Notes: a model not told the origin generated them from the letters alone. 64,000 bases of DNA from Cyanophora paradoxa CCMP329 (GCA_004431415.1 QPMI01000562.1:1-64000), one strand, 5' to 3'; counted from the first letter of the stretch, positions 1 through 63,399 are shown. Numbers and translations are program-made.

Positions 1-85
1 CCAGTGGATCCATTAAAACATTTTAAATTGCGTTTAGAACATCCTAAAATAAAATATCCCTTAGAATAGGAACAAGTTAGGAATA

Positions 86-3000: not shown

Positions 3001-3329
3001 GATCTAACAGAATGACCCCAGGTAAATACAAAAATGAGATGCCAGGTTCTGCTATATTGGAATATGTGGGTCTGAGAGCCAAAGTTTACAGTTTCAGAAC
3101 TGCTGAGATTGAGAGAAGTAAGCTCTCTGGGACTTCAACTGAGGAACTCCAATTTAATGATTTTAAGCAGTGTTTATTTGCAGGTATAAGCAAGACTGTG
3201 ACTGCCAAGCAGAAGAGAAGGGCAGATCACACAATAATAGACACTGTGAGTAGAAGGGTTGCCCTAAACTGCTTTGATGCAAAGAGATACATCTTACCAG
3301 ATGGTATTAATTCTGTTCCTTTTAATTAA
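86..3329 (+). pseudogene. Protein-primed family B DNA polymerase, copy A, split by two 1-nt deletions (~193, ~1,262)
   Basis: ATG at 86 gives MPRITNKLIREKKWELMG, matching the copy B N-terminus. Motifs DANNLYG, KLMNNSIYGK and HDTDS are present. Both breaks are single-base losses in short runs (gaccgg(g)aa; ggga(a)tc) and may be consensus errors. Confidence 0.85.
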
Positions 3330-3332
3330 GAG

Positions 3333-4718: not shown

Positions 4719-5205
4719 TTTGCTAGCCGAAAACTCGTTTTTTGAAATATATGTATGTGTGATATACATATATGCATATGATATACACGTCAACTTGTAG
4801 ATCTTTTCAAGCGCTTCACAACGCTATGCAGAACGTTGCGAGTGGACAATCTGGTGATGAGATACAAGCGTTTGAAGATGCCGATTATCGATTTTTCGAG
4901 ATTTCGGAATGATGCATCATAATGATGTAATAATGATGTATCATAAACATATAACATATATATATCGCCGTGATCGTCATGATCTCCCGAGTTCGATGGT
5001 GTGTCATATATATCATATACATTTGCATCGTCATTATGACATCATTTCGTAAAATTACACGTCCGTCATCGTCTTTTTCCGCAGCGAACAGATAAGTGAA
5101 CAGTTAAGGAGACAACTATTGTAATAGTGGACTGCAACAACAATTGAAAACAAGATCTGTGGGAAAGCTATTGAAAGACAATGAAGCAAATTGCGAACAA
5201 TTAAG

Positions 5206-5284
5206 TGAACAGTTAAGTGGACACCTGTTGGGAGTAGGCAGTGTCTACTCGTTTATCGTGAAACGGTGTCCACTTAACTGTTCA
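5206..5284. repeat. 20-bp inverted repeat TGAACAGTTAAGTGGACACC (copy A; same structure at ~7,716-7,793 in B)
   Basis: Arms at 5,206-5,225 and 5,265-5,284, with a GAGTAG/CTACTC mini-stem in the loop. Confidence 0.9.
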
Positions 5285-5512
5285 TTTAACTGTTGACGAA
5301 AACCCAAGCATTATGACATCATATCATTAAACCCCATACAAAACACTAAAATGCATGTATCTCTTCACCAACTCATCGCCTGACAAAACCAAAAACAGAT
5401 TCGGAATCCTCTTGACAAGACCTGCGTGACGATGTAAGTATCATAGGCTCAATAAATCATATGTTTAAAGGCATCTCCCCTTGATTCCCCCTATTATATT
5501 ATATTTATATTT

Positions 5513-5950
5513 AAGTGGACTCAAGGTTGACTCATATTAATCGTAAAAGTAGTAAAAGTATATGGATTTTGTTACGAATTCAATGCAAGGGTTGACTAAG
5601 TGGGTTGAGTTGACTCAAATTTCACAGGAAATATTTGGGACCTAAAGTTTTCTAAAAAGGATTTCAAAAAATGTGTCAACTCCCCCCACTTAGTCAACCC
5701 TGACCATAAACAGTAAGGATTTGAGCTAACATGTATCACAAAGTGAACATATTGAGTCCACTTAGAAGATCCACTTTTGAAATCCAAGTTGATTTTGCTT
5801 GAAATTTCAAAGTTGATCTAAAAGTGAGTCCACCCTGATTGATTATGGTAACAAAGTTGACTAAGTTGACTAAGTTGAGTCATATTAAGAAATTCAAGGA
5901 GACTAAGAGTTCAAAATGTTAATGAAAAGTGAGTCAACTTAGACCACTTA
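5513..5950. repeat. Cluster of GT(T/G)GACT iteron-like motifs in both orientations
   Basis: aagtggactc, ggttgactc, gggttgactaagtggg...cccacttagtcaaccc, aagttgactaagttgactaagttgag, gagtcaactt. Confidence 0.75.
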
Positions 5951-6644: not shown

Positions 6645-7523
6645 ACACATAGTAAAATGCGGAGTTTTAACCCTCGGCTTATCTTAATTGATTTTGTTCA
6701 TATATCTCGTATATTCTATTTCAATCAATCGATAATCTGTGTATATCTTATCGAATATTCAATTATTTCGATTATTTTGTATTCTTTTCGATATTTTATC
6801 GTAAATTTCTCTTATTTTCCGATTAGTCTTACTGATTCTATCGATAATCTGTATAAAATTCCGAATAATATAACTGAATCTCAATTAGATCTTGCCTCTG
6901 GTTAAAACTCCGCATTTTACTATGTGTGATTGGTCTAAAAGTTAATTGATTTAATCGATATTATATTCATGTACTTTCTCGATTAAATTTAATTAAATTT
7001 AATTCATTTAATCGGAAACATATCGCTTAACTCGATTAAGATCCATATTAGATTCATTTGTTTAATAAAACAAATCGATCTCTTATTGAATTCAATCGTA
7101 ATTATACATGAAATTGATATGTTTTTCTCATGTTTTAATGAGTCTAAGGGGGTCCCTTAAGAATTTAATGAATAATTGGGTGTCACAGGTGTCACAGGTC
7201 CATCCCATCGAAAGGGAAAATCACTCTTTATAGGGCTTGAGCTGGGATAGACCTGTGACACCTGTGACACATACCATATTCAGTAAGGACCTCATATATT
7301 GTTAAAATCTCAGTGTTAGTTGGTGTAGTTGATTCAAAAAATGCATTTATACTCTGATTCATTGTTATTTCCTGTGAAATTTGAGTCAACTCAACCCACT
7401 TAGTCAACCCTTGCATTGAATTCGTAACAAAATCCATATACTATTACTACTTTTACGATTAATATGAGTCAACCTTGAGTCCACTTTAATATAAATATAA
7501 TATAATAGGGGGAATCAAGGGGA
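6645..7523 (+). repeat. Left TIR (879 bp)
   Basis: Reverse complement of 33,147-34,026. The only difference I noticed is a G5/G6 run at ~7,150. Confidence 0.95.
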
Positions 7524-8282: not shown

Positions 8283-9668
8283 CTAGCTAGTTTTGGTCCT
8301 CTCTCTTAGTGTTCTTTGAGGTTTAGGGGCTGTATATGACTCCTTAGTAGTCTGAAAGTCACTATACCATCTCTGGCTATTCACTTCTGAAAGTTTCTGT
8401 GTGCCTGCTATGGTGAGCTTTTTGAGTTCCCTATTAACTTTCCCAGCCTTCTCCTTCCTAGCCTCTATCAAAGGCTTATCTGGGACTTCATTAGCAGCTT
8501 CTATGCCTTCTCTCCTTATAGCAGCATCAACCCTAGCTTCCTCTTTAGCTTGCTCTAAGGCATCTACTGTAGGGGTTTCCAGATACTCAACTGCATTCAC
8601 AGGCAACAGCTCATGGAAAGCAAACCTGTTATCTATGATCTCTCCAGTGGGACTCTTTAGCTTAAACTTAAAGCCTTCCCTACTATCAACAGTGTAAACC
8701 ATCCTAGACCAATTGTTACCCTGTTTAGCAAAGGGGTTCTTCTCTACTTTCACTCTAACAAACATGCCAGGCTGCATGGTATCAAGATAAGCTATTGATT
8801 TCTTGAATCTTTCATCTTCTAATCCTACTATATACCTATAATGCTCCTCTGTAGTTTCACCTGGCTTCATCTTAGTAGCTGAGTGAACTGTATTATTGTA
8901 ATTAAACTCAATATCACCCAACACATCAAAGAATCTAGCTGTGTTATTAGCTATGCAGTAGTTTGTGATCAATCTCTTAATCTGCTTGTTAAAGGCTTCA
9001 ATTCGACCTTGGCTCCTATGGTCTGCAGTTCCACTCACTTGGTGTTCTATGAATTTACTAGATAAATACTCCTGGAATATTCGATTTTGGAATTCACTTC
9101 CAGCATCTGATTGAACCTTTACTATGGGTCTTGCCACTCTCATCTCAAGCTGTTTAAATGCAGCTAATGTAGTGAGAGCTGATTTATCCCTTATAGGTAT
9201 GATATACCCAGTTCTCAGTGTTGATTCCATTGCAGTCATAAAGGTATCATAGCCATTGTTTTGTTTCTTATAAGCTGGGAAAAAGAGCAAATCAATCACA
9301 TAGGTATCAAGGGGTTGCCTTATTGGGACCATGGGATCTCTCTTCCTAGATATAGCAGGTGCATTGATCTGAACTACCTCTTGCTTTTTATAGAACTCTT
9401 GCAACTGCTTATAGGATTCATCTGGTAACTCAGCCCTCATAGCTTGAAGCCCTTTGTAACCAGTTCTCACATCATAGAATCTCTTGGCAATCTTGCTAGT
9501 TTCTTTCACTGCAATAGCAACTGGGATCTCTACTGGGACAAGCTCTTTCATCTCAGACTTTTTGACAATTCGAGATTCCCCTTTTTCCTCCTTTGGAACT
9601 GTGATAGGCAGTAGGTTACCTTGCAGTTGCTCAGTGGTTCTCCTTACTATTCTTCCAGTTGCTGGCAT
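8283..9668 (-). CDS. rve/DDE integrase (Polinton type), copy B
   Basis: YVID, QSDAGSEF and RIEAFN catalytic motifs in an intact 461-aa ORF. Confidence 0.93.
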   Translation of the reverse strand: MPATGRIVRRTTEQLQGNLLPITVPKEEKGESRIVKKSEMKELVPVEIPVAIAVKETSKIAKRFYDVRTGYKGLQAMRAELPDESYKQLQEFYKKQEVVQINAPAISRKRDPMVPIRQPLDTYVIDLLFFPAYKKQNNGYDTFMTAMESTLRTGYIIPIRDKSALTTLAAFKQLEMRVARPIVKVQSDAGSEFQNRIFQEYLSSKFIEHQVSGTADHRSQGRIEAFNKQIKRLITNYCIANNTARFFDVLGDIEFNYNNTVHSATKMKPGETTEEHYRYIVGLEDERFKKSIAYLDTMQPGMFVRVKVEKNPFAKQGNNWSRMVYTVDSREGFKFKLKSPTGEIIDNRFAFHELLPVNAVEYLETPTVDALEQAKEEARVDAAIRREGIEAANEVPDKPLIEARKEKAGKVNRELKKLTIAGTQKLSEVNSQRWYSDFQTTKESYTAPKPQRTLRERTKTS

Positions 9669-9671
9669 CTC

Positions 9672-12600
9672 TTAATTAAAAGGAACAGAATTAATACCAT
9701 CTGGTAAGATGTATCTCTTTGCATCAAAGCAGTTTAGGGCAACCCTTCTACTCACAGTATCTATTATTGTGTGATCTGCCCTTCTTTTCTGCTTTGCAGT
9801 CACAGTCTTGCTGATACCTGCAAATAAACACTCCTTAAAATCATTGAATTGGAGTTCCTCAGTGGAAGTCCCAGATAGCTTACTTCTCTCAATCTCAGCA
9901 GTTCTGAAACTGTAAACTTTGGCTCTCAGACCTACATACTCCAATATAGCAGAACCTGGCATCTCATTTTTGTATTTACCTGGGGTCATTCTGTTAGATC
10001 CCCCTAAGTCCAGATTAAAGGATATATTCTCTAGGTCTTTTTGGAGGGTCTGAGATTCGATATATAGACAAAAGGAATCAGTATCATGGAATAGTAACTT
10101 TGCTTTTGCCCACTGGGACCTTACAGTATCATAGAAGAACTTGTAGTTATGCAGTTTGGCAGTATCCAAAACATAAGCCCCAATAGCAACAGGTTTATCT
10201 AGCTTCACATGCTTTGTGTAAAACTCAAAGGCAACTGCTTTTTCGTTTATGGGACTTGTTGATTTCACCAATGGGGAAGCTGCATATTTCATAAACAGTT
10301 TCTCACTGTTTGCAATCTTAACCACAGATCTACCTCTGCAAGATTCAATGCATTTCCCATAGATTGAGTTATTCATGAGTTTATAGAAATCAGCCTCGAA
10401 TTTATTCACTGCTTTCCTTCTCATCTCAGTATTCAGCTCAATGTAGGGTTTCATTACAGGAGCCACAGTAAATGATAGGACCCTGTGAACCTTCTTTAGT
10501 TTCACCCCTTTGTCCAACAGATACTGTAGAAGAGGCTCAGAAATCACATAGTTTGTCACAGAACCAAAGGTTGCAGTTAGCTTAGGGGTCTTATCAAGCT
10601 CTTCTCCTGAGAGATCTAATAGGCTCTTTTGATATTGTGATAATTCTGCATATTCTACTATTTTCTTGTTAATAATTAGGGGGAAATCACTGTGGTCTAG
10701 ATATAGCCTAATTGGGTAATCCAGATCAACTTCCAGGAAACTGGATCTGTTATCTTGTGGGTTGAATTCGGTCTCCCATCTAAAATCACCAACTGGGATT
10801 GGCTGACTCAAACAGTAGCCATACAAGTTGTTAGCATCAAACAGCATTATATGGGAGTTCTCACCATCAGCCTCAGCATACCTACAAGGCATTGTTGCAA
10901 AGCCACCCCTGATTCCCCTCTCAACAAATTCGTATTGCTCTACATCACTTATTAGCTCTATTTTTGCCTTGGTGGTCCTTAACATAGCATCCCAAGATAA
11001 CCCAGGGGCAGATACATAATGAACTGGGTCAAGTCCATATACTGAGTGTGAAAGCCTTCTAAAAGCCTGGAATTTGTTCATTAACTCATCTACATCAGCA
11101 GCTCCAAAATCCATGAAGTTACTTGCATCAATGAACTTGTAAAGACCCCATTGCAATGAAAGGTATTGATCAAAGTTTTTCGAAAGGATTTCGATTCGCT
11201 TTTTATCACCCATGCCTGCTATTTTTCTGAAAATGAATGTCCCACAGTCATCCATTTGGTCAACAACTACTGCAACTTTGGTTTGCTTTGAGATTCTCCT
11301 ATGGAGATTGCAGTTTCTGCATGCAGGAGCAATATAATGACCTGTGTGGTGATCATGATCCCTGCATTTGAAGTTCTCCTTAGTGAACCTCTCACTGCAA
11401 AGGTAACAGTGTTTGGTAGCTCTGTAAATTGCTTTCTGCTCATCTGTGAGTTCATTCATAGGAATGTTGGTAAACAGGAAATCGATTAGTTCTCTTGCTT
11501 TGGACTCCAAGCATTCAAAGAGACCTCCCATTGGATCCTGACCCTCAAATCGAAACTCCTGAACATCTGCCCCAGTGACTACTCTCAGGTTGACTGCTGA
11601 GACTTCCCTCTTAGATTTTGATGCATCAATGGGGATGCTTCTATGTTCAATCTTGCAGTAAACCACAACAGGAAGCCAAACAGTTTTCCTGAGGTTTTTC
11701 AGTCCAAACTCTATGGTGGTCTCAGGTTTTGGTGTGATTCCCTTTGAGAGTCTCCAATCAATGCATCTATTTGAGTCCACATGAGCAGTGAGTTTAGCCT
11801 CAGACCTGAATCGAGATAAGCATGTATCACAGTAGTGTAACTTTTGATCCTTGGTTTTATCAAGGGCAACTCTGAGAAGTCTTGAAAGGGACATGATTGT
11901 AATATAGTGACCATTCCCTTCATCATCATGAATGAGCATTAGATTAATCTTTTGCTTTCTACCTGGGTTACTGGATTGATGTAGGGGATATATAACATCT
12001 CGATCCATTCCAAATATGTTTATGCTGATGCCTGCATTTTGAGATTCGAATTTATCAATTATTTCAGCATCACAGGCAACAGGGAATGGGATGTTATCGA
12101 AATTGAGTGCCAGAGGATTGTATGTAGTTGGTGAGTATTTCCATTTGCGATATTGTGTAAGCTCACTTCTCTTGTGGGAATTCACATCTTTCCTATGGAT
12201 CCATGCCAAAATGGCATTTTCGAAGCAAGAATCATCAATATTTCGAATATTCACTGTGGCTCTCTTGGCTGCAATTGACTCAGGTGTTTTAACATAGCAA
12301 CCACCGGTTGGGGCATAACTCATAATAGCAACTCTAAGCATTTCGATTCTCTCCAATCGATAGCTATCAACAACATTCATCTGTTCCTGACACATTTGGG
12401 CTGCTTTATTCAGCTCAGTTCGAATATTTCTCGATTTGGTTAATACAAAATAATCGCTGTAAATGTATTTCGATATCCAAACCTGTGGATTGCTGACTTT
12501 TACGAACTTGCAGATAAACGATAAGCGAACTTTGATTGCCCTGAATTGATCTAGACTGTCTCTTAAACGTTTTGGTAGAGAGGTTGCAATTCTATCTAAA

Positions 12601-12917
12601 TATTCAATCACATCAACAACAACTTCCCTTCTGGCTCTGTAAGTGAGCCAGCGATATAATTCATTCATTGCTGTACCATCTTCTGCCTCTGGTTCTATTT
12701 GCCTCAGGCGATCGAGTTCATCAAGAGTTTCAACTTTATCATAGAGGTTATTGGCTTTTCTGGTTAATTTCGCTAAAGTGGGTCTGCCCCTTGAAATAAA
12801 TCTGATTTCCCGGTCATATTCAGCCTCTGTAATTTCATGGGCTGCATACAGTGTTCCCAGTAATCCCATGAGTTCCCATTTCTTCTCTCTAATGAGTCTG
12901 TTGCTAATTCGGGGCAT
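9672..12917 (-). CDS. Protein-primed family B DNA polymerase (terminal-protein/vOTU-like N-terminus, endonuclease VII-like Zn finger, degenerate exonuclease)
   Basis: NIDDSCF...GHY, CYLC...RDHDHHTG...CRNCN, YGLDPVHY, GIRGG, DANNLYG, KLMNNSIYGK, HDTDS, LRAKVY. Confidence 0.93.
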   Translation of the reverse strand: MPRISNRLIREKKWELMGLLGTLYAAHEITEAEYDREIRFISRGRPTLAKLTRKANNLYDKVETLDELDRLRQIEPEAEDGTAMNELYRWLTYRARREVVVDVIEYLDRIATSLPKRLRDSLDQFRAIKVRLSFICKFVKVSNPQVWISKYIYSDYFVLTKSRNIRTELNKAAQMCQEQMNVVDSYRLERIEMLRVAIMSYAPTGGCYVKTPESIAAKRATVNIRNIDDSCFENAILAWIHRKDVNSHKRSELTQYRKWKYSPTTYNPLALNFDNIPFPVACDAEIIDKFESQNAGISINIFGMDRDVIYPLHQSSNPGRKQKINLMLIHDDEGNGHYITIMSLSRLLRVALDKTKDQKLHYCDTCLSRFRSEAKLTAHVDSNRCIDWRLSKGITPKPETTIEFGLKNLRKTVWLPVVVYCKIEHRSIPIDASKSKREVSAVNLRVVTGADVQEFRFEGQDPMGGLFECLESKARELIDFLFTNIPMNELTDEQKAIYRATKHCYLCSERFTKENFKCRDHDHHTGHYIAPACRNCNLHRRISKQTKVAVVVDQMDDCGTFIFRKIAGMGDKKRIEILSKNFDQYLSLQWGLYKFIDASNFMDFGAADVDELMNKFQAFRRLSHSVYGLDPVHYVSAPGLSWDAMLRTTKAKIELISDVEQYEFVERGIRGGFATMPCRYAEADGENSHIMLFDANNLYGYCLSQPIPVGDFRWETEFNPQDNRSSFLEVDLDYPIRLYLDHSDFPLIINKKIVEYAELSQYQKSLLDLSGEELDKTPKLTATFGSVTNYVISEPLLQYLLDKGVKLKKVHRVLSFTVAPVMKPYIELNTEMRRKAVNKFEADFYKLMNNSIYGKCIESCRGRSVVKIANSEKLFMKYAASPLVKSTSPINEKAVAFEFYTKHVKLDKPVAIGAYVLDTAKLHNYKFFYDTVRSQWAKAKLLFHDTDSFCLYIESQTLQKDLENISFNLDLGGSNRMTPGKYKNEMPGSAILEYVGLRAKVYSFRTAEIERSKLSGTSTEELQFNDFKECLFAGISKTVTAKQKRRADHTIIDTVSRRVALNCFDAKRYILPDGINSVPFN

Positions 12918-14370: not shown

Positions 14371-16698
14371 ATGAACGCCAAACAGACTAAATCGCTCAAA
14401 TCGCTCGCTAACTGGCTCAGATCTGATGAGGATCTAGCCAAAAACATGATTATCCCAGTGAAACCTGACAGCAAAGACCCTGTTTTCAAGCATAAGGGAG
14501 GTGCTTGGTCCTGGGAAAAGTATGAAGAAGCGCTGGCAACTAATCAGTATGTATCTTGGGGCATTCTGCTCTCAGACAACATGATGGTTATTGACTTTGA
14601 TGATGAGGAGAACTTTGAGAAATTCCGAGATATGTTTCCTGATGACTTTGATGCCAATCAACCCATGGCAAAAACTAAAAAAGGCTATCATGTCTACTTT
14701 AAACGTCCTGAGGAGTTCACTAAACTCAAAATCACCGATAAGGCTCCAGGCTTTAAAGGCTTTGAAAAGGTTGACCTGAAAACAATCACTGGAACTGGAA
14801 CTTCTGGATTAATTAATGTTTGTCCCAGTGTCAACAAGACCTGGGTAATTGCTCCATGGGATGATACCTGTGATTTCAATGAGCCTACTGATGAGTTTAA
14901 AAAGTGGATTGCAGAGAACTATATCTATAAGAGTGAGTATACTGCTAATGCTACCTCACATGATGCATTGGAAAAGAGTATTCTTAAAGAGCTGGTGGAT
15001 ATGGGCTTTATGCATCCCAATATAATCTCTCAAACTGAACTGGGCTTTAACTTTGATGCTGCTAATAAGGGACTTAATTGCCCATGCTGCAATGGGTCCC
15101 ATGAATCGAATAACTGGTATGTTATGAAAGCCAAAGGAGAAGATAAAAAGTATATTGTGTCCAGCTACAGTGGCAATTGCAAAAAACGATTTATCTTCAT
15201 TGGAATGCAATCTGATATCTTCAATCTCATTGATAAGTCCGCTGGTTCTGGAGGCGCTCATTATGATGTCAGTCTTGTGTGCAAAGAGGTACTACAACAT
15301 ACTTGGAGATACTCCAAAAAGTCATGGTTCAAACTCAATACTGATACTGGGATTTGGGAGCATGATGACACAAACCAAAAGATTTACCTAGACATAAGTT
15401 GCCTTGTTGTCCCTCAATACCTTGGCAGGGCTGTGCATTATAGCCAAAGAGCTTTGAAGGATGAAGAGAATAGAACAGCTTTCGAAGAGAAATCGAAAAC
15501 ATTAATTTCTATTGCCAAAAATCTTAAACAATCAGGATATCGCAAATCCCTTCTGACTGATCTGCTCCCTCTGCTGAATGATGATGAATTCTATGAAAAG
15601 ATTGATACAGTTCCATATGTAATTGGATTCGATAATGGTGTATTTGATCTGACAACTATGACTTTCAGAAAGGGGAAACTGGAAGATATGGTGAGCAAGA
15701 GTGTGGGTTATGATTATACTGAGAATGTAGACCCCAAGAAAGTAGACCATCTCAATCAGATTTATAGAGAGATTGTAGATGATCCAGCAGAGCGAAACTA
15801 CCTTCTGGCATCTATTGCAATTGCCCTCAGTGGATCAACAAAATCACAGAAGTTCTACATGTGGACTGGTGCTGGGGCAAATGGTAAATCACTTGTTCAG
15901 GAATACTGCAAACAGATTTCAGGGGCTTATTATAGCCCTCTCGAAATATCCTATTGGACCAAACCTAAAAAGAACTCATCAGATGCTACTCCTGAACTTG
16001 CCAAACTCCTTGGAAAGCGACTTGTATTCAGTAATGAGGCTGAAGATGGTGATAAACTGCAGATCTCCAAAATTAAGGAGGTCACAGGTGGAAATGAAAT
16101 GACTGTGAGAGCCTTGTTCAAAGACCCAGTAATCCTCACTCCAATGTTCCAGGTTTACATTACAACTAATGACAATTTGACTATAAATAAACCAGACTTT
16201 GCAATTCAAAGAAGACTTTCATACCAGAGATTCAATAATATATTCAGAGAGAAGCCTGAAGCTGGTCAGAAGAAAGCTGACCCAACACTGTTCACACTTC
16301 TACACAATGATGATGAGTATAAGATGGCTCACATGAAGATATTACTGGATATGTGGAAGAACAAAGAGGTTGAAGAGATCTTAAGAAATCCCCCTCAATC
16401 GATTATTGAACAGGGAATAAACTTTATAGCTGAAAATGATAAGATTGGTGAATGGCTTAGGGATAATTTCGAAGTTACCCATAATGCAAACGACTTTGTT
16501 TCGAGTGATATCATTTACAAATCATACAGAAGTGTCGATGATAAAGTTGAATGTGTTTCTGTGATGAAGAGAGTAAGGGAAATCTTCAATGTGAAATCAG
16601 AGGTTAAACGAATTCAGGGAACCAGAGCAAGGGGCTACATTGGACTTCGAAAGATAACAAGGGTTCAAGAAGACAATGGAGAGGATGTTGAATATTAA
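14371..16698 (+). CDS. Prim-Pol primase fused to D5-like SF3 helicase
   Basis: VIDFDD and KTKKGYHVYF (AEP/Prim-Pol motifs), CPCC..H..C Zn motif, IGFDNGVFDL, Walker A GAGANGKS, Walker B LVFSNE, IKEVTGG. Confidence 0.93.
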   Translation: MNAKQTKSLKSLANWLRSDEDLAKNMIIPVKPDSKDPVFKHKGGAWSWEKYEEALATNQYVSWGILLSDNMMVIDFDDEENFEKFRDMFPDDFDANQPMAKTKKGYHVYFKRPEEFTKLKITDKAPGFKGFEKVDLKTITGTGTSGLINVCPSVNKTWVIAPWDDTCDFNEPTDEFKKWIAENYIYKSEYTANATSHDALEKSILKELVDMGFMHPNIISQTELGFNFDAANKGLNCPCCNGSHESNNWYVMKAKGEDKKYIVSSYSGNCKKRFIFIGMQSDIFNLIDKSAGSGGAHYDVSLVCKEVLQHTWRYSKKSWFKLNTDTGIWEHDDTNQKIYLDISCLVVPQYLGRAVHYSQRALKDEENRTAFEEKSKTLISIAKNLKQSGYRKSLLTDLLPLLNDDEFYEKIDTVPYVIGFDNGVFDLTTMTFRKGKLEDMVSKSVGYDYTENVDPKKVDHLNQIYREIVDDPAERNYLLASIAIALSGSTKSQKFYMWTGAGANGKSLVQEYCKQISGAYYSPLEISYWTKPKKNSSDATPELAKLLGKRLVFSNEAEDGDKLQISKIKEVTGGNEMTVRALFKDPVILTPMFQVYITTNDNLTINKPDFAIQRRLSYQRFNNIFREKPEAGQKKADPTLFTLLHNDDEYKMAHMKILLDMWKNKEVEEILRNPPQSIIEQGINFIAENDKIGEWLRDNFEVTHNANDFVSSDIIYKSYRSVDDKVECVSVMKRVREIFNVKSEVKRIQGTRARGYIGLRKITRVQEDNGEDVEY

Positions 16699-18522: not shown

Positions 18523-19305
18523 TTATAAACCGCGTTTATATCGCATCAATTTATTGCTATGGACTTGGCTTTTCACTTCTTTTGGGGCTTCCTCTTTCTC
18601 TGGTGGTTTCAGTTCATCTTCTTTCTTTTTGGGCTTCCTGTGGAAGCGAGGGAATGGGAAATCTTTCACAAGGTCCGCTTTATCAACAAAGTATTTAACT
18701 GAGTAGCCAGCAGAGGACCAAACGATATACTGATAGGAGTGAACATACTCTTCAAACATCTTGTAGAAATCCTCTTTATTTCGCATTATATTGTATTCTT
18801 CCTCTATGGCTTCAAGTTCTTTGCGATTAGCAGCACTTAGGAAAACAGCATAATCAGAATTAACTCGAATAGTGGAAGAGACTTTTCTGAGTTTCTGTGT
18901 AATGCAGATAATGGATATTTTCGAATGGCGACCTCTGGAATACAAGGATCCGATTATTTTATCCCTTGTGAGATCGACTATCTCATTATCAATTAAATCA
19001 TCTAAAACAACACACATGTGGTTCACAGGTTCACCTTTTTCGATTTTCTCCTGCCTTTCATCCAAAAGCTTTGAAATGTAACCAGCATCCCATTTACCAA
19101 GTTCTACTGTTGCAACCTCTCTCCAGAAATGATTAAAGCTGGTCCCACTCACAACTAGGACAACATCAATAACTTTGGCATCATGTAATTGCTTTAACCA
19201 ATACTTTACACATTCGCTTTTTCCCGTACAACTTTTGCCTATAAAAATGGCTCTGAAAACACCTTTTATCATTTCAGAAACATTAAACTCTTCTAAATCT
19301 TGCAT
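18523..19305 (-). CDS. A32-like DNA packaging ATPase
   Basis: Walker A GKSCTGKS, Walker B VVLDD, RGRHSKISIICITQ, TIRVNSDY. Confidence 0.93.
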   Translation of the reverse strand: MQDLEEFNVSEMIKGVFRAIFIGKSCTGKSECVKYWLKQLHDAKVIDVVLVVSGTSFNHFWREVATVELGKWDAGYISKLLDERQEKIEKGEPVNHMCVVLDDLIDNEIVDLTRDKIIGSLYSRGRHSKISIICITQKLRKVSSTIRVNSDYAVFLSAANRKELEAIEEEYNIMRNKEDFYKMFEEYVHSYQYIVWSSAGYSVKYFVDKADLVKDFPFPRFHRKPKKKEDELKPPEKEEAPKEVKSQVHSNKLMRYKRGL

Positions 19306-33146: not shown

Positions 33147-34026
33147 TCCCCTTGATTCCCCCTATTATATTATATTTATATTAAAGTGGACTCAAGGTTG
33201 ACTCATATTAATCGTAAAAGTAGTAATAGTATATGGATTTTGTTACGAATTCAATGCAAGGGTTGACTAAGTGGGTTGAGTTGACTCAAATTTCACAGGA
33301 AATAACAATGAATCAGAGTATAAATGCATTTTTTGAATCAACTACACCAACTAACACTGAGATTTTAACAATATATGAGGTCCTTACTGAATATGGTATG
33401 TGTCACAGGTGTCACAGGTCTATCCCAGCTCAAGCCCTATAAAGAGTGATTTTCCCTTTCGATGGGATGGACCTGTGACACCTGTGACACCCAATTATTC
33501 ATTAAATTCTTAAGGGACCCCCCTTAGACTCATTAAAACATGAGAAAAACATATCAATTTCATGTATAATTACGATTGAATTCAATAAGAGATCGATTTG
33601 TTTTATTAAACAAATGAATCTAATATGGATCTTAATCGAGTTAAGCGATATGTTTCCGATTAAATGAATTAAATTTAATTAAATTTAATCGAGAAAGTAC
33701 ATGAATATAATATCGATTAAATCAATTAACTTTTAGACCAATCACACATAGTAAAATGCGGAGTTTTAACCAGAGGCAAGATCTAATTGAGATTCAGTTA
33801 TATTATTCGGAATTTTATACAGATTATCGATAGAATCAGTAAGACTAATCGGAAAATAAGAGAAATTTACGATAAAATATCGAAAAGAATACAAAATAAT
33901 CGAAATAATTGAATATTCGATAAGATATACACAGATTATCGATTGATTGAAATAGAATATACGAGATATATGAACAAAATCAATTAAGATAAGCCGAGGG
34001 TTAAAACTCCGCATTTTACTATGTGT
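33147..34026 (-). repeat. Right TIR (880 bp)
   Basis: Reverse complement of 6,645-7,523. Confidence 0.95.
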
Positions 34027-53483: not shown

Positions 53484-53604
53484 GGTTGCTGGATGCTGCG
53501 CTCTCGTCAGCACCGCATCTCTCGATTCCTGAAAGGCCCGCAGGCGCCCGGAAAGCCGCACCGATTACAGCGAGACCAGTCTGCTGTACCCCACCGAAGA
53601 GTTG

Positions 53605-56600
53605 ATGCTTCGTGGCCTGGTGGCTCGCGCGGCGCTCCTGCATCGGCTGCCGGCTGTTCATCAAGCTACATCAGCTCCCGTGTACCGCTCGATCCGGCTC
53701 TTCCGGGTCGACCGTCTAGCGCGGCCGCCAGCCTCCTCGCGGGACGCAGACATGGCCTCGCGGATCGCCTACCTGCAAGTGCTCGGCACAGACACGGCGG
53801 ACACGACGCCGGGCTGCTTCCTGTTCACCGACCGTCAGCGGTACCTGTTCAACGTAGGCGAGAATACGCAGCGCTTCTGCCTGGAGCACGGAGTGCGGCC
53901 GACGAAGATCAACCACGTGTTTCTGTCGGACATCACGCCAGAATCCAGCGCGGGGCTCCCCGGTGCGCCTCACGGCCTCCCGATCGGAAGCGCCGCGCAC
54001 TAGCGCCGACGCGGTCGGCGCGCAGGCATGCTGCTCACAATCGCGGACGCGGGAGCGACTCAGCTGCAGGTGCACGGGCCACGGAACACCGAGCGCTTCC
54101 TGCAGGCGACGCGCTACTTCATGCAGCGGTCCGCTCGCCGCCGATCGCCACGTGCGGCGCCGCGCCCCCGCCGACGCTCGTCCCGCAGCACCGCTTTCAA
54201 GCTCACCATCAAGGAGCACGACAACGCGCCGGACGGGGCCGAGCCGCAGCCGTTCCAGGTGCCCGCCCGTGCCCCGGCCCCCCGCGCGCTCCGCGACGCC
54301 TCGCGAGACCGCCGACGGCAGGACGAGGACATCACGGTCTGGCCCGTTATCATCCACGCGAAGCCGGAGGCGCGGAGCGGGGAGGAGCCGCCCGCCAAGA
54401 AGGCCCGAGGGGCGGGGTGCGCTTCTCTCGCCCCGCCGCCCCACCCCCCGCCTCTCTGGGGCCCTGGCCGACCCCCCTCACAGCGGCGCGCTGGCGCTAC
54501 CCCCCATTTGCGTCTACGTGGTGCGCCCCTGCGGCCGCACCCGCGCCGCCTCGAAGCAAACGCCGTGCGGCAGGCCAAGGTCGCGGACACCCCCGGCAAG
54601 TTCAACCCGGTGAGGGCGAGGGAGCTCAAGCTCACCCCGGGGCCCGACTACGGTGCGAGCCGCCCGCCGCCCGCCGCCCCGCGCCCCTTCCGTCCGACCT
54701 CGCCTCCCGCAGCGCGGCTCACGCGCGGGGAGAGCGTCCGCAACGCCGACGACGTATTGATCAGACCCGACCAAGTCATCGGCCCACCCGTGCCCGGGCC
54801 GGTCCGCGACCCGCAGGCCTACTCGTACGCTCCGCGCCCACGACGCCGTACCCCTCCTGCGCAGGTCTCGATTGTCTTGCGGTGCCCCGACCTGGGGTAC
54901 ATCGATTCCCTCGTCTCCCACCCGGGCCTTGCCGAGTGCTACGCCGGTATCCCCCTTTTCGGCCTTGCTTCCGCACTGCTGTACCCGTCCCGTAAACTGC
55001 GAGTGTAGGGGGGAGCCGCGCGGCGCGATTGGTCGTCCACATGACCGAGCAGGCGAGCGCTCGCCCGGCGCTCCCTCACCCGTCTTGCTCACTGTACCCC
55101 CGGGGCTCAGGCGGTCCTGGACGACGAGAGGTACAGGAAATGGATGGAGCGGTTCGGTGACGACTGCGCGGTGTGCCCCGCGTGCCCCCCGCGCCGCGCG
55201 GGTCTGCACCCCGCCCTGCCCTCACCCCGGGCCGCAGCACATTGTGGTGAACGCGAAGCAGAGCCCGCAGCGGGTGCGCCCGGCGCCGCGCGGGGGCGGG
55301 GCCGGGCCCCCCGTGCGACGCGGCGCGGCAGGTGATCTTCCGGGCGGCGGCGGCGCACAACGCGCGCCTCTCCGCCATCGACGAGCGCGTCTTCCCCGTC
55401 CCCCACTTCCAGAACGTGCGTCCGCCCGCCCCGCCCCCGCCCCCTCCTCCCCTCCCCGGCTGAGGTGCCGCGTCCCCCACTTTCGCGGGCAGCCCTCCGA
55501 GGCGAGCTGCAAGCAGCCGGCGGCTCTCCGTGCGCGGCGCCCCTCCCCGCCCGGCCCCTCCCGCGGCGGGGCTTGACGGGGGCGGGCAGCGGGGCTCCCC
55601 GGGCGGGCCGTGGCGGGGGACGCGATGATGAAGTTCGTGCTCAAGCCGCCCGAGAAGCTCGGCGTGCTCTGCGACGAGGCGCGCCCCCGCCCCCGCCCCG
55701 CCGGCGGCCCGGCGCCTGAGCGCGGGGCCAGGTGCCGGGCCCCGTGGGGCTGGAGACGGTGCGGGGGAGGTGCTGCGGATGCCCGACGTCCTCGCCGCCA
55801 GGAACCGCATGGTGCCCGCCCCGCCCCGCCCCGCCCCGCCCCGCCCTTTCCTTCGTCCCCCGACAGGCCCCCGCCCGCAGCTCGCGCGGCTGGCCGAGGC
55901 CGGCATGGCCCCGGCGCCGGCCCCGCCCCGGCCCCCGCGGGAGCCCGCGCTCGCCCAGGGTCCTCCCTCCCCTCCCCTCCCCGCCAGCGCCCGCGCCGGC
56001 GCCCCGCGCCTCTGTCGGCTCACGAGGCGGGGGCAGAGGCGGGGGAAGGGGCGGGGCGACACGGGCGGCCTCGAAGACGCGGCCGAGCTCCTCGTCTCGG
56101 GGGGCGCCCCCGCCCCCGCCGGTCCGCCCCGCCGGCCCCCGCCGGCCGCGACTGGGGGCTGACGCCGCGAGCAGCCGGGCGCTCGCCTCCGCGGAGGAGC
56201 CCCGCCTCGGGCCGCGAGGTGCGCCCCGGCCCGCCGCCACACGCTGGCCCGCCCCGGGCCCCATGGACGCCCCGCAGGCCCCGGGCGCCCCGCCTCGCCC
56301 CCGCCCGCCCGCGCCACCGTGTACGCCCCGGGCCCCCCGCCCCGTCCTTCCGCGTGCCCCGCCGACCCGAGTTGCGGTACCCCCGCGCCTTGCAGGGACT
56401 GCTTGTCGGAGCCGTGCCCACCGTTCCTCCAGAACATCTCCCCCCGGGAGGCCGAGCTCGTCTTCCTGGGTACCGGCTCCGCCCTCCCCTCCAAGCTCCG
56501 CAACGGTCCGCGCGCCCCGTACCCCCCGCAGGGCGCCCCCCCCCCTCCCCCTCGCCCTCAACGCGGTACCCCAGTGTCGGCGATCTTTCTGAACCTGTTC

Positions 56601-58276
56601 GACAAGGGCACGGTGCTGCTGGACTGCGGGGAGGGCACGTACGGGCAGATCGTCCGCAAGTACGGCGCCGAGGGGGCCCGCACGGTGCCCCGCCCCCCCG
56701 CGCACGCGCGCGCGCCGGCCCCGGCGGGGCGGGGCGTCGAGCGGGGTGCTCCCCGCAGGCGCTGGCGGGCCTGCGGCTCGTGTGGATCTCGCACTTCCAC
56801 GCCGACCACCACGTCGGCCTCGTCAAGGCGCGCGCACCCGCCTCCCTTCCCGCCGCCTCCCCGCAGCTTACCGAGCTTCGGTATCCCCAGATCCTCGAGG
56901 AGCGGTGGCTGGTACCGCCCTCCCTCAAGCCCGCCCGCCGCGCTGCGCCCTCGCCTGACGCGCCGCAGCTGAAGCAGGAGGGGCTGATCCCGCGTGACGA
57001 CACGGTCCTCGTCGTGGGGCCCTTCCAGGTAGCCCCCGCGCCCCTCCCGTTCCCCCTCTTCCCCCGGGTCGACGCGGAACCCGGCAGGTGGGGAGCTGGC
57101 TGCGGGACTACAACCGGCTGTACCCCCTGGACTACGAGTTCGTCGACTGCAAGGAGATCAAGGCGCGCCCCCGTAAAGGGGCCGCGAGCCGCGAGCCGCT
57201 CTCTCTTTTAACTCGAACGGCGCGCAGGAGACGGGGAGCGGCGGGGGCGGCCTCGTGACGTGCGGCGCCCCCTTCCCCCCCTGGCCGCCCCCCGTCCCTG
57301 CCTCCCCGAGCCTCCCCCCGGCCCCCTCGGCCCCACAGGAAGGCGAAGGAGGCCCTCGGGCTCTCCTCCCTCTCCAACGTCCCCGTGCGCCCCGCCCGCC
57401 CGCCCCGCCCGCCCGCGGCGCCCCCGCCGAGCGAGGCCGCAGGTCATCCACTGCACGGAGGCCTACGCCGCCATCCTCGAGTCCAAGACTGGCTGGAAGC
57501 TGGCCCGCCGCCCGCCCCGCCCCGCCCCGCCCCGGCGCGGGGCTCGCTCGCTGACGGGGGCGAGCTCAGGTCTACTCGGGGGACACGCGGCCGTGCCCGG
57601 CGCTGGTGGAGGCGGGGCGCGGCGCGACGCTCCTCATCCACGAGGCGACCCTCGAGGACAGCATGCTCGAGGCCCGCGCCCCGCCCCGCCCCGCCCGCCT
57701 CGGCCGGCCTGAGGGGGCGGGGCGGGGCGGGCAGGACGCGAAGGCGAAGCGGCACTCGACCTTCTCCGAGGCCCTCGACGTCGGCCGCCGGTGCCCGCCC
57801 CGCCCGCCCTCCCCCGCTGCCCTCTGACCCCGCGGCCGGGGCCGGGGGGCAGCATGGAGGCCTTCCGCGTCATCCTCACGCACTTCAGCCAGGCCCGCCC
57901 CCGCCCTCCCCGCCCCGCCCCGCGCGCCTCGAGCCTCGCCCCTCGCAGCGCTACCCGAACGTGCCGGCGCTGGAGGTGGGCGGGGCGGGCCACCTCACCC
58001 TCGCCTTCGACCTCATGACCGTCAACTTCGCCCAGCTCCGGTGCCCCCGCCCCCGCCCCCGCCCCCCCGTCGGCGCCGAGGAGCGCGGCTGAGGGGGCGG
58101 GCGGGCGCAGGGCGCTGCCGCTGCTGCTGGAGCCGGTCTCGCGCCTCTTCGACATGTCCCGGTGCGCCGCGCCGCCCCGCCCCGCCCCGGGGCGCGCGGG
58201 GCCCGACGCGGGGCGCAGGCGGGAGCCCGAGGACGAGGACGAGCGCGGCATGACCCGCATCCTCTCCGCCCCGTAG
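53605..58276 (+). CDS. ELAC2: Long-form ribonuclease Z with N-terminal presequence, many introns
   Basis: [74 protein letters not shown]. Confidence 0.95.
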
Positions 58277-59018
58277 CTATAGCCGCCCCCGCCCCGCCCC
58301 GCGGCCGCGTCGGCGTCGACGTTCGATCCATCGAGCCCCCCTGCCGCCGCCGCCACCGGCGCGGCGCCGCGAAGACTCTTGAAGAGGCAGGGCCTATACC
58401 TAGTAGTGGTGTCCAGAATGATATAATGATCGATCGCGAACAGCTGCAGCCGAGTATCAAGAACTTGCAATACTAGCTATAGTTGGGGAATTCGAAGGGA
58501 AAAACACTTCCAATGTCCCTCTCCTTTGAATTCGGGCCCAATTACAATTGCAACCCTTCCCCAAATCCCGTTTCCTCGACCTCCTAAAAACCCGGGCCGC
58601 GCGGTATATCCTGAAATTAAAGCCCGTGGCCATCTCAAGGAGACCCCGAAACCGGGTCGCCATGTATAGTGCAGTATTGCATGCGTTTGGGCGTTGACCA
58701 CGTGCACACAGCAGATCTAGAATGATCCCACAATCGCGTTCAGTCACATTGCAGCGGACTCGCACATGGACGAAGCGCAAAAAACTACAAAATGATACAT
58801 ATATATATGCAATTGTTGTGGAAAATCGAAAACACAGTCGTGATCAAGCTGGCACTGGCACAGGGATTGCAGTGCACGGCGGCGCCTCTGCCTCTCCACG
58901 ACCACCACAGAAAACATCAAACTTGAAAGCGATAAGATCGACTGCTTCTCTGCAGACGCGCAGGCCGGCCTGAGCCTCGACAAGGCCGGAGCGGGCCGGC
59001 GGCGGGGCCGCGGCGGGG

Positions 59019-62000
59019 CTACTGCTTCTTGGCGATGGCGGAGGCGATGGCGGAGGCGAAGAGGCGCGCAGTGGCGACCTCGTCGTCGCTGAAGTACTCG
59101 CAGCGCTCCCCGACCGCCGCCTTCCACCTGTCCCGCCCAAGTCAGCTCAGCGCGCGGCGCCGGGCGGCGCCGCGTGAAGATTGGAGCGCACAGAACGAAA
59201 GAGTTCTGCGGGCCCAGCTTGCCCTTGTCCGCCTCCGTGAGAGGCTTGTGGTTCTCGCCGATCCAGTCGACCGACTGCGAGGAGGTCGCGTCAGAGGCGC
59301 GCGCGCGCGCGCGCTGGCGGGTCTTCCCCGAGCCCCGTGCGGACAGGAGGCGCTAGAGGGCGGTGCCGGAGCACCTGGAGGGCGGGCCGCCGGAACCAGA
59401 AGGCGGTGACGCCCTGGCCACCGTTCTGGTTGCCGTAGACGGAGACAGCGAGGAAGCCGCCCTTCCAGGACAGAGCCTTCCCGTCCACGCGGCAGTCCGT
59501 CTGCGCCGCCGCGCGCGTCGGGGGCGCATCCGGCAGAGGCGCAGCGGCCGTCTCGTGTGCGACGAGTCCACCGCAGGCGCCCGCACCGGTGCGTTGTCCG
59601 AGACCCAGACGTCGTGGCGCGAGGCGGACTTGGAGTTGTCGGGGTAGCGCCTGCGCGCGCGCCGTCACGCTCAGGCCGAGCCTCGAGCGTGCAGCCGCGA
59701 GGTGAGGTGGCGGTGGAGCCGCACCGGACGCTGCTCTTGCCCGAGTGGAGGAGCTGCGCGAGCCACTCGAGCTCGCCCTCCTCGACCACCTGCGCGCCCC
59801 GTCGGCGCCCGCGCGCCCCGGGCCACTGGAACTCTGGCGCCCGCGCTCCGCCCCCCCCCCCCCCCCCCCCCCCCTCCTCCTCCTTCCTTTCGCCCGCCCC
59901 TCCCCCTGCCTTTTCTGAGCAGCGCCGAGGGGAGGGAGGTCACCTCGCCGGCCTTGGCCGCCCGCTTCGTTGAGAGGTCCAAGACGACGGAGCCGCTGGC
60001 GGGGCCCTCTCAGCGCGCCGCCCCCTCGGGCTGCCAACCCCCCAACCGCTTGCAGACCTGCACTTCGGGATGATGGCTGCGATGGAAGCATTCAGCGCGC
60101 TCGCGTCGGGGCTCCCTTCAGCCGGCCGCGCGACAGCCCAGAGCCCAATGTCCGGAGGGCCGGCCGTCACTGCTTCGCCACCGGCGGTGTTCGAACCTGC
60201 GCATGTTCGTGTTCAGTACCGGTCCGGCAGGGCCGGCTGCGCGAGGGCGAGGCAGGGCGGCTGGGCCGCACCGATGGCAAGGAGCTGCAGGCGGCGGCGC
60301 GGCGTGCGCAGGCGCGAATGCATCGGGGTCGGGCGGCAGCGCCCCGGGGCGGGCGCGGGGCGGGGGCACCTCGGTGGGGGCGAGCAGGGCGCGCTCCTTG
60401 GCGAGGCGCGTCTGGTCCCGCGTCGCCGACTCCAGGCAGCGCGAGAAGAGCTGCCGCCCCCGCCCCCGCCTCAGCGAGCGCCCCCGCCCCGCCGGCGTCC
60501 ACCGGCTCCGGAGGGCGCGCACCTGAACGATACCGACGAGGGACGTGCGGGCCTTGTACGAGACGTACATTCCCTTCTGCAAGGCGCGAGAAGTAGTGAT
60601 CAGCACAGGGCGCGGCGGCGAAGCGGCTTCGGGCGAAGAGCGCGCGTTGTGGTGGTACATCGAAACGAGCCCCCAGAGCTTGTTGTTCGCGATGATCTGC
60701 CGCGCACGTGAGCCGGCGGCGATTGCGCGACCGAGCACGAGGCCTTCGCGCGCGCGCGCGCACCGAGTAGACGAGCTGCGTCCGCGAGTTGGAGTTGGTG
60801 TTGAACTCCCTGACGCAGCGCGCGGGAGCGCTGCAGGGCGGCGTCAGGGGCGCCCCGACGCGACGCGGCGCCGTGCACGCGGCGGAGGCGCACCGGGAGT
60901 TGCAGTAGTACATGTCCAGCGCGTGCTTCTTCTCGGGGTGCAGCTCCGGGAAGAGCCCGACGCCCTCTGCGAGCGGGGCCCGTCACGCGCACCGACGCGC
61001 CGACCGAGTCGCCCGCCCACCGAGCAGCATCTAGTGGAGGACTCGGGGCGCGCGCACCGTCGGTCGAGTCGAGTATGAGTCGGGCGCGCGAGGCGTAGAA
61101 GATGGCGCGGGAGAAGACGGGGATGTCGGTCGCTGGGGCGGGGCGGCTCGGTCAGCGCGGCGCGCGCGACGAGGAGGCCGGGGCGGCGCCGACCGGGGAA
61201 GTGGAGCCCGAGGTACGGCGTCAGCTTCGCGTCGCGGAGCGTCTCGCTGCGCACGTGGCCGTGCCCCTCCCTGCCGCCGCAGGGCGCCCCGCGTGAGCGC
61301 CGGCAGAAAGTGCTTCCCGGAAGCGTAACCGCGCACTTGGAGAAGGCGAAACAGCTGCGCGCGGGAGCGGCGGTCAGCGGGGATCTCGAGCGGCGCGACG
61401 CCCCCGGAGGTGCGCACCAGACGCGGTCGAAGCCCGAGACCTCGGAGAGGACCTCCGTCACCACCCGGCAGAGCGCCGCCTCGTCGGACTCGCCCTGGAG
61501 GCGCTCTGCCGGGCGCGAGCACGGCCGTCGGCGGGCGCCCGCGCGGAGGAGCGTTGCGAGTCTCGGGGCCGCACCTCTGCCCTTCAGCATCAGCGCCGCG
61601 GGGTACGCGTCGAACGCGGCGAAGCCGTTCGGCAGTGTGTCTTCCTCCTTCTCGAGGAAAGGCTCCAACTCAAGAACGGCTGAGAGGGGGTAATCAGGAC
61701 GACATCGATGAGCCCCAAAAGACAGAAGCCCTGGCAGAGCTTACCGCAACCCCTGCAGGGATCGGCGTGTCAGAAACGCGATGGAATGGGATAAAATGAT
61801 CTTCAGCTAAGCGGCAAGGACTCACCCTCGATCGTTCTCGGAGCCTGGGGGCCGGTGGAGGATGCCGTACCACTTCGAGCCGCGCTGAGCGGTCAGGGTG
61901 AGGGGCATGGCCGCTTGGAGCTCCTCGTTCGAACTCCCCGCGCGCAGGCAGGCGCGGATCTCCTCTACAGACTTGTCGGAGAGGATCGTGTCGAGCGTGT

Positions 62001-62545
62001 CCCCCGCCACTTTGTCCGGCTTCACGCCCAGCAGAGTCTGATCATGCAACCTTGGATGAGAAGGGTCCAACGATCGAGCACACGGGCCCGCGGGGGGATG
62101 CGCACCTCGGTGTTTTTGGAGATCTGTTGGACGACCAGGTCGGACTCCCTCAGCACGGCCAGCACACAGAAGGACTGCACGAGTCTAGACGGTGGAAAGA
62201 GCGTCAGTCGCATCGATGCGCACGGACCGCATGCCGCTGCCTAATCAACATTCATGCGCATAGATACAGATCGCTATGGTGAAGGCCCCTGGCGCGGGCG
62301 CACTGTGCAGTCATCATCTCGGCCTCCTGCGTTCAGTATGGTCAGCAACAGACACAGTTAAGAGTAAGCTCAATGCGCACAGCGTGCTCGCTCTCGGTGT
62401 GGGCGGTAGCTTTGATAGCCTGCATGGACATGGTCTCGGTGGACCCCTGAGGAAGCTTACTGTCGCCGCCGGGTTTGTCGTTAGTGGTCTGGCCTGCAGA
62501 GCCTGATGAGCCACCCTCGCCCGCTTGGCTTGGAGCACAGCCCAT
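59019..62545 (-). CDS. Phytochrome photosensory module (PAS-GAF-PHY), no output domain seen
   Basis: VQSFCVLAVL..QQISKN, GFDRVW, GHGHVRSE, YLGLHFPATDIP, RCVREF, LWGLVSMYH, FWFR, LGPQNSF. The 3' end could extend to 58,844 by one more intron. Confidence 0.9.
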
Positions 62546-63399
62546 GTTGTTCGGATTGCAGCTGATATCTCGACTCGGCGATAGATTTAGACTGATAGTT
62601 CACTGCCGCAGCGGTTGTGCGCTTAAATACGCGGCGCACTGCCGCCGAACCGCTGCTGGGAGTTACTAAGAACAGCTGCGCAGCGAGCTCAAGTAACGCC
62701 CAGGCGAAACCGGGCCGCTCGCCGCAGCTAGCCTGACTACAGCGCTCCTCCGGGATCGTGCGATTTTAGCGAAGGCGGCGCTTCCTTCGGCGCCTCCGCA
62801 GCAGCTGCAGCAACAACCTGCAAGCTTAGGACAGAGGCTCTCAAGAAAGCCTCTCTCCGCTCCCGCCTGGGTACAGTGGATTCTTCCTTCGCGCTGATTG
62901 GTCAGAACTTCTTTCTTGTCCGCGTCGAATCGAGCTCTCGAAACGCCAAACGGCCATGCGGCCGCGGCATGAGCGGCTGATGAGCCGCATGACTGATCAT
63001 GACGCCGCTGCACTGCGGCAGCCTGCAGGCTGCAGCCCGGCGGCCGCCGCGGCGCGCGAGTCACGCTGGCATCATCAATTCATCATGCCATCATGCCGAC
63101 TCGAGCTCGAGCTCATTAAATATTGCCAACGATATCGATGGATATATATATATTTCCTGCTTTAATTTACATGTACATTATATATATACACGAACCATAT
63201 ATATACATCTAAAAGCCTTGAAGTTTTTAACATTAAACATTATATTAAAAACGGACACGCGTACGCGGTCGACTTCGAATTCGCCGTCACTTCGGGAATC
63301 GGGCCCGGACCCGTTCCGACTCTTCGGAGTCTCTTCCGAGCCGTTAACGTTCGGCACCATCATGCCACTATGGCCATCGGCACGTCACCCGTCACTGAA

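Follow-up and report, generated by a model that had tools for sequence, protein, structure and literature searches.

The window analysed here, a 64,000-nt stretch of the genome of the glaucophyte alga Cyanophora paradoxa CCMP329 (QPMI01000562.1:1-64000, GCA_004431415.1), carries on the minus strand of a GC-rich, intron-dense region a phytochrome gene, g18910, followed by a convergent gene for RNase Z (Table 1). The original prediction had read g18910 as an output-less, possibly lipid-anchored phytochrome with an altered chromophore pocket, and the features on which it drew, namely the upstream start MGCAPS, the intact DIP motif, the Cys-Val pair within RCVREF, the PQNSF tongue, and the stop codon just after the PHY domain, are all found at their minus-strand positions.

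Table 1. Coordinates of the phytochrome gene, its protein features, and the neighbouring gene in the window
Feature	Position	Strand	Basis
CDS, 608 aa, 23 exons	59019..62545	-	Contig joints and exon model
Exons 1-8	62866-62381, 62326-62304, 62184-62106, 62037-61826, 61752-61745, 61679-61575, 61505-61418, 61354-61337	-	Contigs and model
Exons 9-16	61270-61194, 61132-61058, 60966-60894, 60830-60764, 60696-60646, 60576-60523, 60450-60370, 60284-60272	-	Contigs and model
Exons 17-23	60196-60058, 59995-59944, 59789-59725, 59650-59587, 59500-59375, 59274-59192, 59127-58691	-	Contigs and model
5' UTR, 321 nt, in exon 1, without ATG, in-frame stop at 62602	62546..62866	-	Contig X1 and sequence script
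Start codon and MGCAPS, predicted MGCxxS myristoylation and S-acylation motif	62528..62545	-	Sequence, exon model, consensus
Gly/Ser-rich leader, 38 aa, missing from database model g18910.t1	62432..62545	-	Comparison with P0001
PAS domain, aa 57-169	61660..62323	-	Pfam PAS_2, E 3.9e-15
GAF domain, aa 207-347	60646..61479	-	Pfam GAF, E 3.4e-5; Cph1 alignment
DIP, aa 261-263	61127-61119	-	Sequence
RCVREF, Cys313-Val314	60817-60812	-	Sequence
PHY domain, ~aa 426-607	59025..60110	-	Pfam PHY, E 2e-12; model and fold match
Tongue PQNSF	59211-59197	-	Sequence
3' UTR, 328 nt in longest contig	58691..59018	-	Contigs and model
Convergent RNase Z gene, intron-rich, approximate limits	53533..58428	+	NCBIfam RNase_Z on 3 of 3 pieces tested; X5 contig piece 58218-58428

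Transcript and gene structure

The transcript of g18910 comprises 23 exons (62866-58691) and is spanned by single spliced contigs from two studies. One 2476-nt contig (X1, study P1, 62866-58691) and one 2377-nt contig (X5, study P2, 62855-58779) each join the exon encoding MGCAPS to the exon bearing the stop codon, and both skip the same introns. Exon 1 is likewise spliced to later exons in X8 (study P3) and X18 (study P7); X12 has a 272-nt piece within exon 1, and X15 runs unbroken over 60391-63036 without intron-skipping joints, as expected of genomic DNA. Contigs from 6 of 22 available runs were compared with the window; no run was recorded as RNA, and splicing was inferred from the intron-skipping joints. 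Exon borders were set by fitting these joints to splice signals, which gave 21 GT-AG introns, one GC-AG intron, and exons summing to exactly 2476 nt; the 18-nt exon was positioned from a 19-nt gap in the contig and a match to the database protein (P0001). Most of the introns open with GTGCGC or a close variant at the 5' splice site, and four exons are micro-exons (exons 2, 5, 8, and 16, of 23, 8, 18, and 13 nt). A Pfam search on single open frames had matched only 2 of 10 pieces, the introns being the cause of the low yield.

The stop codon (59021-59019) lies inside the last exon and is followed there by the 3' UTR, in which the longest stop-free stretch in any frame is 90 codons. A downstream output exon was considered and rejected, as stop codon and UTR stand within one contig, and there is no room for an output domain further downstream because the RNase Z gene occupies that DNA. 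The spliced contigs thus contain the MGCAPS exon and show no splice to an output domain, the two points at which the original prediction was exposed at the level of the transcript. The output-less form is the expressed form in the runs examined, with the proviso that rare variants could escape the contigs. The contig ends of the phytochrome gene and of the long RNase Z gene are separated by ~260 nt.

Domain architecture and fold

The spliced product matches Pfam PAS_2, GAF, and PHY above gathering scores and nothing else, and the stop codon closes this PAS-GAF-PHY core 42 aa beyond the point where the tongue motif begins. An AlphaFold2 model built on a 10-row alignment (pLDDT 76.5) matches the Cph1 and Agp2 cores over the whole chain (Foldseek E 2.7e-34, TM ~0.70-0.75), and phmmer relates the sequence to Cph1 at E 1e-36. 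In its domain order and predicted fold the protein is a knotted phytochrome. It shares the fold and the key binding residues of the Cph1 photosensory core (PDB 2vea, 3zq5, 8rvx), from which it differs in having no kinase, in the changes Y176F, H260V, Y263F, M267S, R472Q, and probably H290Y, and in its putative acylation leader.

Proteins of this build, in which hardly anything or nothing follows PAS-GAF-PHY, are found among bacteriophytochromes of bacteria; P0104, of 525 aa, is one, and Bradyrhizobium BphP3 is another core-only example. In a regex census the C-terminus of 11 of 230 other hits, some perhaps truncated, lies no more than 70 aa past the tongue motif. An output-less core alone is not new, then, judging from these bacterial sequences; unlike g18910, they lack the acylation motif, and P0104 keeps His260 and PRxSF.

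Chromophore pocket

Relative to Cph1, the protein keeps Tyr198, Asp207-Ile-Pro, Arg222, Arg254, Cys259, Ser474, Phe475, and Trp478, and it carries the changes Met174Cys, Tyr176Phe, His260Val, Tyr263Phe, Met267Ser, Ser272Gln, Arg472Gln, and probably His290Tyr. The residues associated with bilin attachment are all present in its own numbering (Cys313 as the attachment site, Asp261-Ile-Pro, Arg276 for Arg222, and Arg308 for Arg254), whereas the set associated with photoconversion is altered at Phe229 (Y176), Val314 (H260), Phe317 (Y263), Gln568 (R472), and probably Tyr344 (H290). Phe229 and, probably, Tyr344 are two changes beyond those first noted; HMMER places Tyr344 in register with His290, in agreement with the spacing of P0109, while MAFFT puts the adjacent His345 in that column instead. 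Three further cysteines (Cys227, Cys228, and Cys305) bring the number around the pocket region to four, and a Cys at the M174 position is common to the three short paralogs described below and to P0163.

In an alignment of 77 other family proteins, a source less noisy than the regex census of hits, Tyr176 is present in 76 (Phe in none), Tyr263 in 76, Met267 in 74, His260 in 71 (Cys in 5, Tyr in 1, Val in none), and Arg472 in 74 (Gln in none). Y176F and R472Q are private to g18910 within the trio of short paralogs. The PHY tongue is well conserved and retains the S-F-W equivalents. According to the Cph1 literature, substitutions of Tyr176 can block photoisomerisation and those of His260 can lose the chromophore, with Y263F nearly normal (PMC12420706); Y203F alone is likewise described as nearly normal and H290A as forming little Pfr. 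Not every pocket change implies inactivity, because three of the four GPS-type proteins seen share the Tyr at H290. The step that the original prediction took to a light sensor is doubtful, because no relative seen lacks as many photochemistry residues as g18910.

Relatives and phylogeny

No close relatives outside C. paradoxa came up in protein searches covering 5.8 billion and 1.84 billion sequences. Two metagenome scans found no relatives, the ESM Atlas yielded bacterial PAS-GAF-PHY clusters only, and a longer-protein search with an alignment of the three paralogs found no close glaucophyte relative, which is weak evidence. The close relatives within C. paradoxa are g12773 (P0002; 530 aa, 51% identity) and the adjacent models g16304 and g16303 (P0003 and P0132), which we read as one gene that was probably split; both of these short paralogs end 47-53 aa past the tongue motif. 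P0002 is spliced in some of the same runs as g18910, because loose contig ends in X1, X5, and X8 match it. Two clade-mates are more distant: g16300 (P0117), whose model stops inside PHY, and tig00021582_g22642.t1 (P0081), a predicted gene model ~30% identical to the g18910 protein that joins PAS-GAF-PHY to PDEase_I (E 4.9e-74) and contains a stretch, HDFEHPGFNN, which we take to be the PDE signature. The models g16300, g16303, and g16304 all lie on tig00020943, so this one contig bears two of the divergent clade's phytochrome genes no more than five gene numbers apart; the models of both look split or truncated.

Two quick maximum-likelihood trees (52 and 28 rows, hand-picked from ~230 hits, with P0132 omitted and no bootstrap) united five Cyanophora genes, g18910 among them, with SH-aLRT values of 99 and 100, and joined the three short members with 99; the branch leading to the clade is long. 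Support of 97 separates it from CparGPS2 and two Gloeochaete GPS (P0083, P0085, and P0109), and support of 100 from Cys-Cys proteins of cyanobacterial type. The trees do not include CparGPS1, and they do not fix how the glaucophyte and plant groups branch at depth. On this evidence g18910 does not appear to be a canonical GPS and groups with the separate clade. It has in common with GPS such as CparGPS2 (UniRef100_V9PWX6, P0083) the organism group, the PAS-GAF-PHY core, the GAF attachment Cys, and, for three of the four, the Tyr at H290; it differs in being only ~27% identical to CparGPS2, in lacking the Cys-His and PRxSF that GPS keep, and in having no C-terminal module, where GPS carry a single C-terminal PAS and a histidine kinase according to PMC4525182, whose supplement lists Cyanophora GPS 1, 2, and 4. 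CparGPS2 and the Gloeochaete protein P0085 also carry an N-terminal bHLH domain ahead of the photosensory core.

The residue after the attachment Cys is Val in g18910, Cys in P0002, P0003, and P0117, and Ser in P0081, so that the tandem Cys at Cph1 positions 259-260 occurs in three of the four clade-mates with a GAF domain and not in g18910. P0002 and P0003 keep Tyr176 and His290, and P0002 and P0132 keep PRNSF. The statement that Cys-Val characterises glaucophyte phytochromes was not supported, since all four GPS-type proteins seen (P0083, P0085, P0109, and Cyanophora P0163; CparGPS1 was absent) have Cys-His together with Tyr263. Because the closest paralogs have Cys-Cys and the GPS-type proteins Cys-His, Cys-Val is most simply read as a lost tandem Cys and would not be a GPS trait. 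The Cys-Cys of the three clade-mates stands at the same position as in cyanobacterial-type hits such as P0031 and P0008. The trees keep the Cyanophora clade apart from the cyanobacterial Cys-Cys proteins, which agrees with PMC11880981, where tandem-Cys phytochromes, the cyanobacterial TCCPs and the eukaryotic TCEPs, are given independent origins; PMC7332365 connects C. paradoxa to tandem-Cys work. Three cyanobacterial TCCP/3CP proteins are reported to have formed photoinactive PCB adducts once their tandem Cys was removed (PMC11880981).

N-terminal leader

The MGCAPS start is the first AUG of the spliced contigs, with an A-3/G+4 context and an in-frame stop upstream of it. The database protein tig00021133_g18910.t1 (P0001) is identical to residues 39-608 and begins at the second ATG (62431), 38 codons downstream and also with A at -3; the motif was missed by that model because its first 38 residues are absent. 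As the original prediction proposed, MGCAPS reads as a predicted myristoylation and palmitoylation pattern, fitting the MGCxxS consensus for Gly2 myristoylation and Cys3 S-acylation given for plant CBLs (PMC8494787). Plant CBL1/4/5/9 share this N-terminal consensus and are small sensors that recruit an enzyme partner to the membrane, much as is proposed here for the Cyanophora protein; their fold is unrelated, the Cyanophora protein has no poly-lysine tract after the motif, and its acylation is predicted only.

The naive chance of a start of the form MGC..[ST] is ~2e-4 from residue frequencies, for a motif picked post hoc, and an MGC start occurs in 0 of 237 fetched family proteins. Third-position GC in the leader is 0.63, near that of the 5' UTR (0.56-0.65), against 0.85-0.93 in the remaining CDS, and in the model pLDDT stays <50 over residues 1-23 of P0001. 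The models of P0002 and P0003 start at the PAS domain; P0081 starts MGRSDG, and the leader shows no similarity to P0081. As the leader contains neither Phe nor Arg, the idea of a transit peptide for plastid or mitochondrion was rejected.

Interpretation

We propose, with a probability of roughly 0.4, that the g18910 protein is a membrane-tethered, bilin-binding, weakly switching partner subunit of its clade-mates, including the predicted phytochrome-phosphodiesterase. It is quite likely that removal of Met, myristate on Gly2, and palmitate on Cys3 would hold the protein on the membrane by way of a flexible leader, and rather probable that PCB would attach at Cys313, the surrounding pocket having retained DIP, Arg276, and Arg308. 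The short clade members would descend from a tandem-Cys (blue/violet-type) ancestor, and loss of the second Cys together with Y176F, Y263F, H290Y, and R472Q would leave g18910 with little or no reversible switching and a tongue that is only weakly coupled. Since the protein lacks an enzymatic domain, it may pair through GAF/PHY helices with photoactive or PDE-bearing clade-mates, which would be brought to the membrane or damped, and local cAMP/cGMP would be shaped as a result. Against this reading stand the UTR-like codon composition of the leader and the second ATG with A at -3, the failure of the searches to find an ortholog outside the species and the short paralog models that start at PAS, the near-normal behaviour of Cph1 with Y263F or Y203F alone and the Tyr at H290 in most GPS-type proteins, the chance that Cys227, Cys228, or Cys305 could give an alternative second linkage, the status of P0081 as a gene model of only ~30% identity, and the quick trees, without bootstrap, in which the clade has a long branch.

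The main rival, that the protein is instead a true membrane-tethered photosensor, with an odd photocycle, a second linkage through Cys227, Cys228, or Cys305, and light-dependent binding of partners, seems somewhat unlikely. The retained attachment Cys, DIP, Arg222, Arg254, and tongue equivalents suit such a sensor, as do the Cys at M174 in the short paralogs and P0163, the odd photocycles of glaucophyte phytochromes (the blue/far-red CparGPS1; PMC12420706), and the photophobic reaction of C. paradoxa (PMC2781859); yet five changes fall on near-invariant photochemistry residues, Y176F and R472Q are absent even from its own paralogs, and loss of the tandem Cys was photo-inactivating in TCCPs. 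As for the flagellar tether that had been suggested, nothing observed favours the flagellum over another membrane.

Very unlikely, in our view, is a redundant paralog under relaxed selection whose function has been lost, with MGCAPS incidental or translation starting at the second ATG. Its end branch is indeed long (0.35-0.39, against 0.12-0.13 for its sister P0003, whose row lacks PHY so that the columns differ), the leader has weak codon bias, and the searched proteins hold no ortholog from another species; but decay sits poorly with an intact 608-codon frame over 22 precisely spliced introns, including exons of 8, 13, and 18 nt, with contigs in four studies, with the conservative nature of its substitutions (two Y to F, one R to Q, one H to Y), and with a four-position acylation motif at the first AUG. 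Similarly improbable is a protein that works without light, as a sensor or sink for tetrapyrroles or thiol redox state, in which plastid-exported bilin or cysteine oxidation would set an occupied state that signals at a membrane. Binding residues are kept, switching residues are lost, and four cysteines lie around the pocket region, but the PHY tongue, which serves light signalling and is dispensable for binding, remains well conserved.

Returning to the partner subunit proposed above, an extension that we regard as unlikely is that Cyanophora has a second phytochrome system working through cyclic nucleotides and not phosphorelay, in which the PHY-PDE, tandem-Cys short-wavelength sensors, and lipid-anchored subunits at the plasma or flagellar membrane would control local cAMP/cGMP and possibly drive the photophobic response. 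Eukaryotic phytochromes are known as soluble proteins with kinase-type outputs. Were the proposed reading to hold, an early-branching archaeplastid would wire phytochrome to membrane-local second-messenger control by means of "pseudo-photoreceptor" subunits. In the literature consulted we found no description of an output-less, acylated, or PDE-fused glaucophyte phytochrome, nor of a natively lipid-anchored phytochrome or a natural phytochrome-cNMP phosphodiesterase, though other papers may already list these genes; the main text of PMC6704402 does not contain the term "phytochrome." The interest of the gene lies in the missed anchor motif and the PDE-linked second clade more than in the photocycle argument. 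The clade offers a natural series of Cys-Cys, Cys-Ser, and Cys-Val for tests of tandem-Cys chemistry and may supply optogenetics with a PDE that is red-shifted or blue, and the corrected g18910 model brings to light a putative targeting motif that had been hidden.

Other features of the window

Positions 1-34026 of the window form a low-GC (30-42%), intron-free block in an otherwise GC-rich genome that looks like polinton-like elements. The block encodes an rve integrase (8283-9668), a protein-primed DNA polymerase B (9672-12917), a D5 primase-helicase (14371-16698), an A32-type ATPase (18523-19305), a patatin, and a 1942-aa protein with a Peptidase_S74 domain. Positions 6645-7523 and 33147-34026 are perfect inverted repeats of ~880 nt, and 58-5633 holds a second copy, partial and inverted, that is 87-97% alike.
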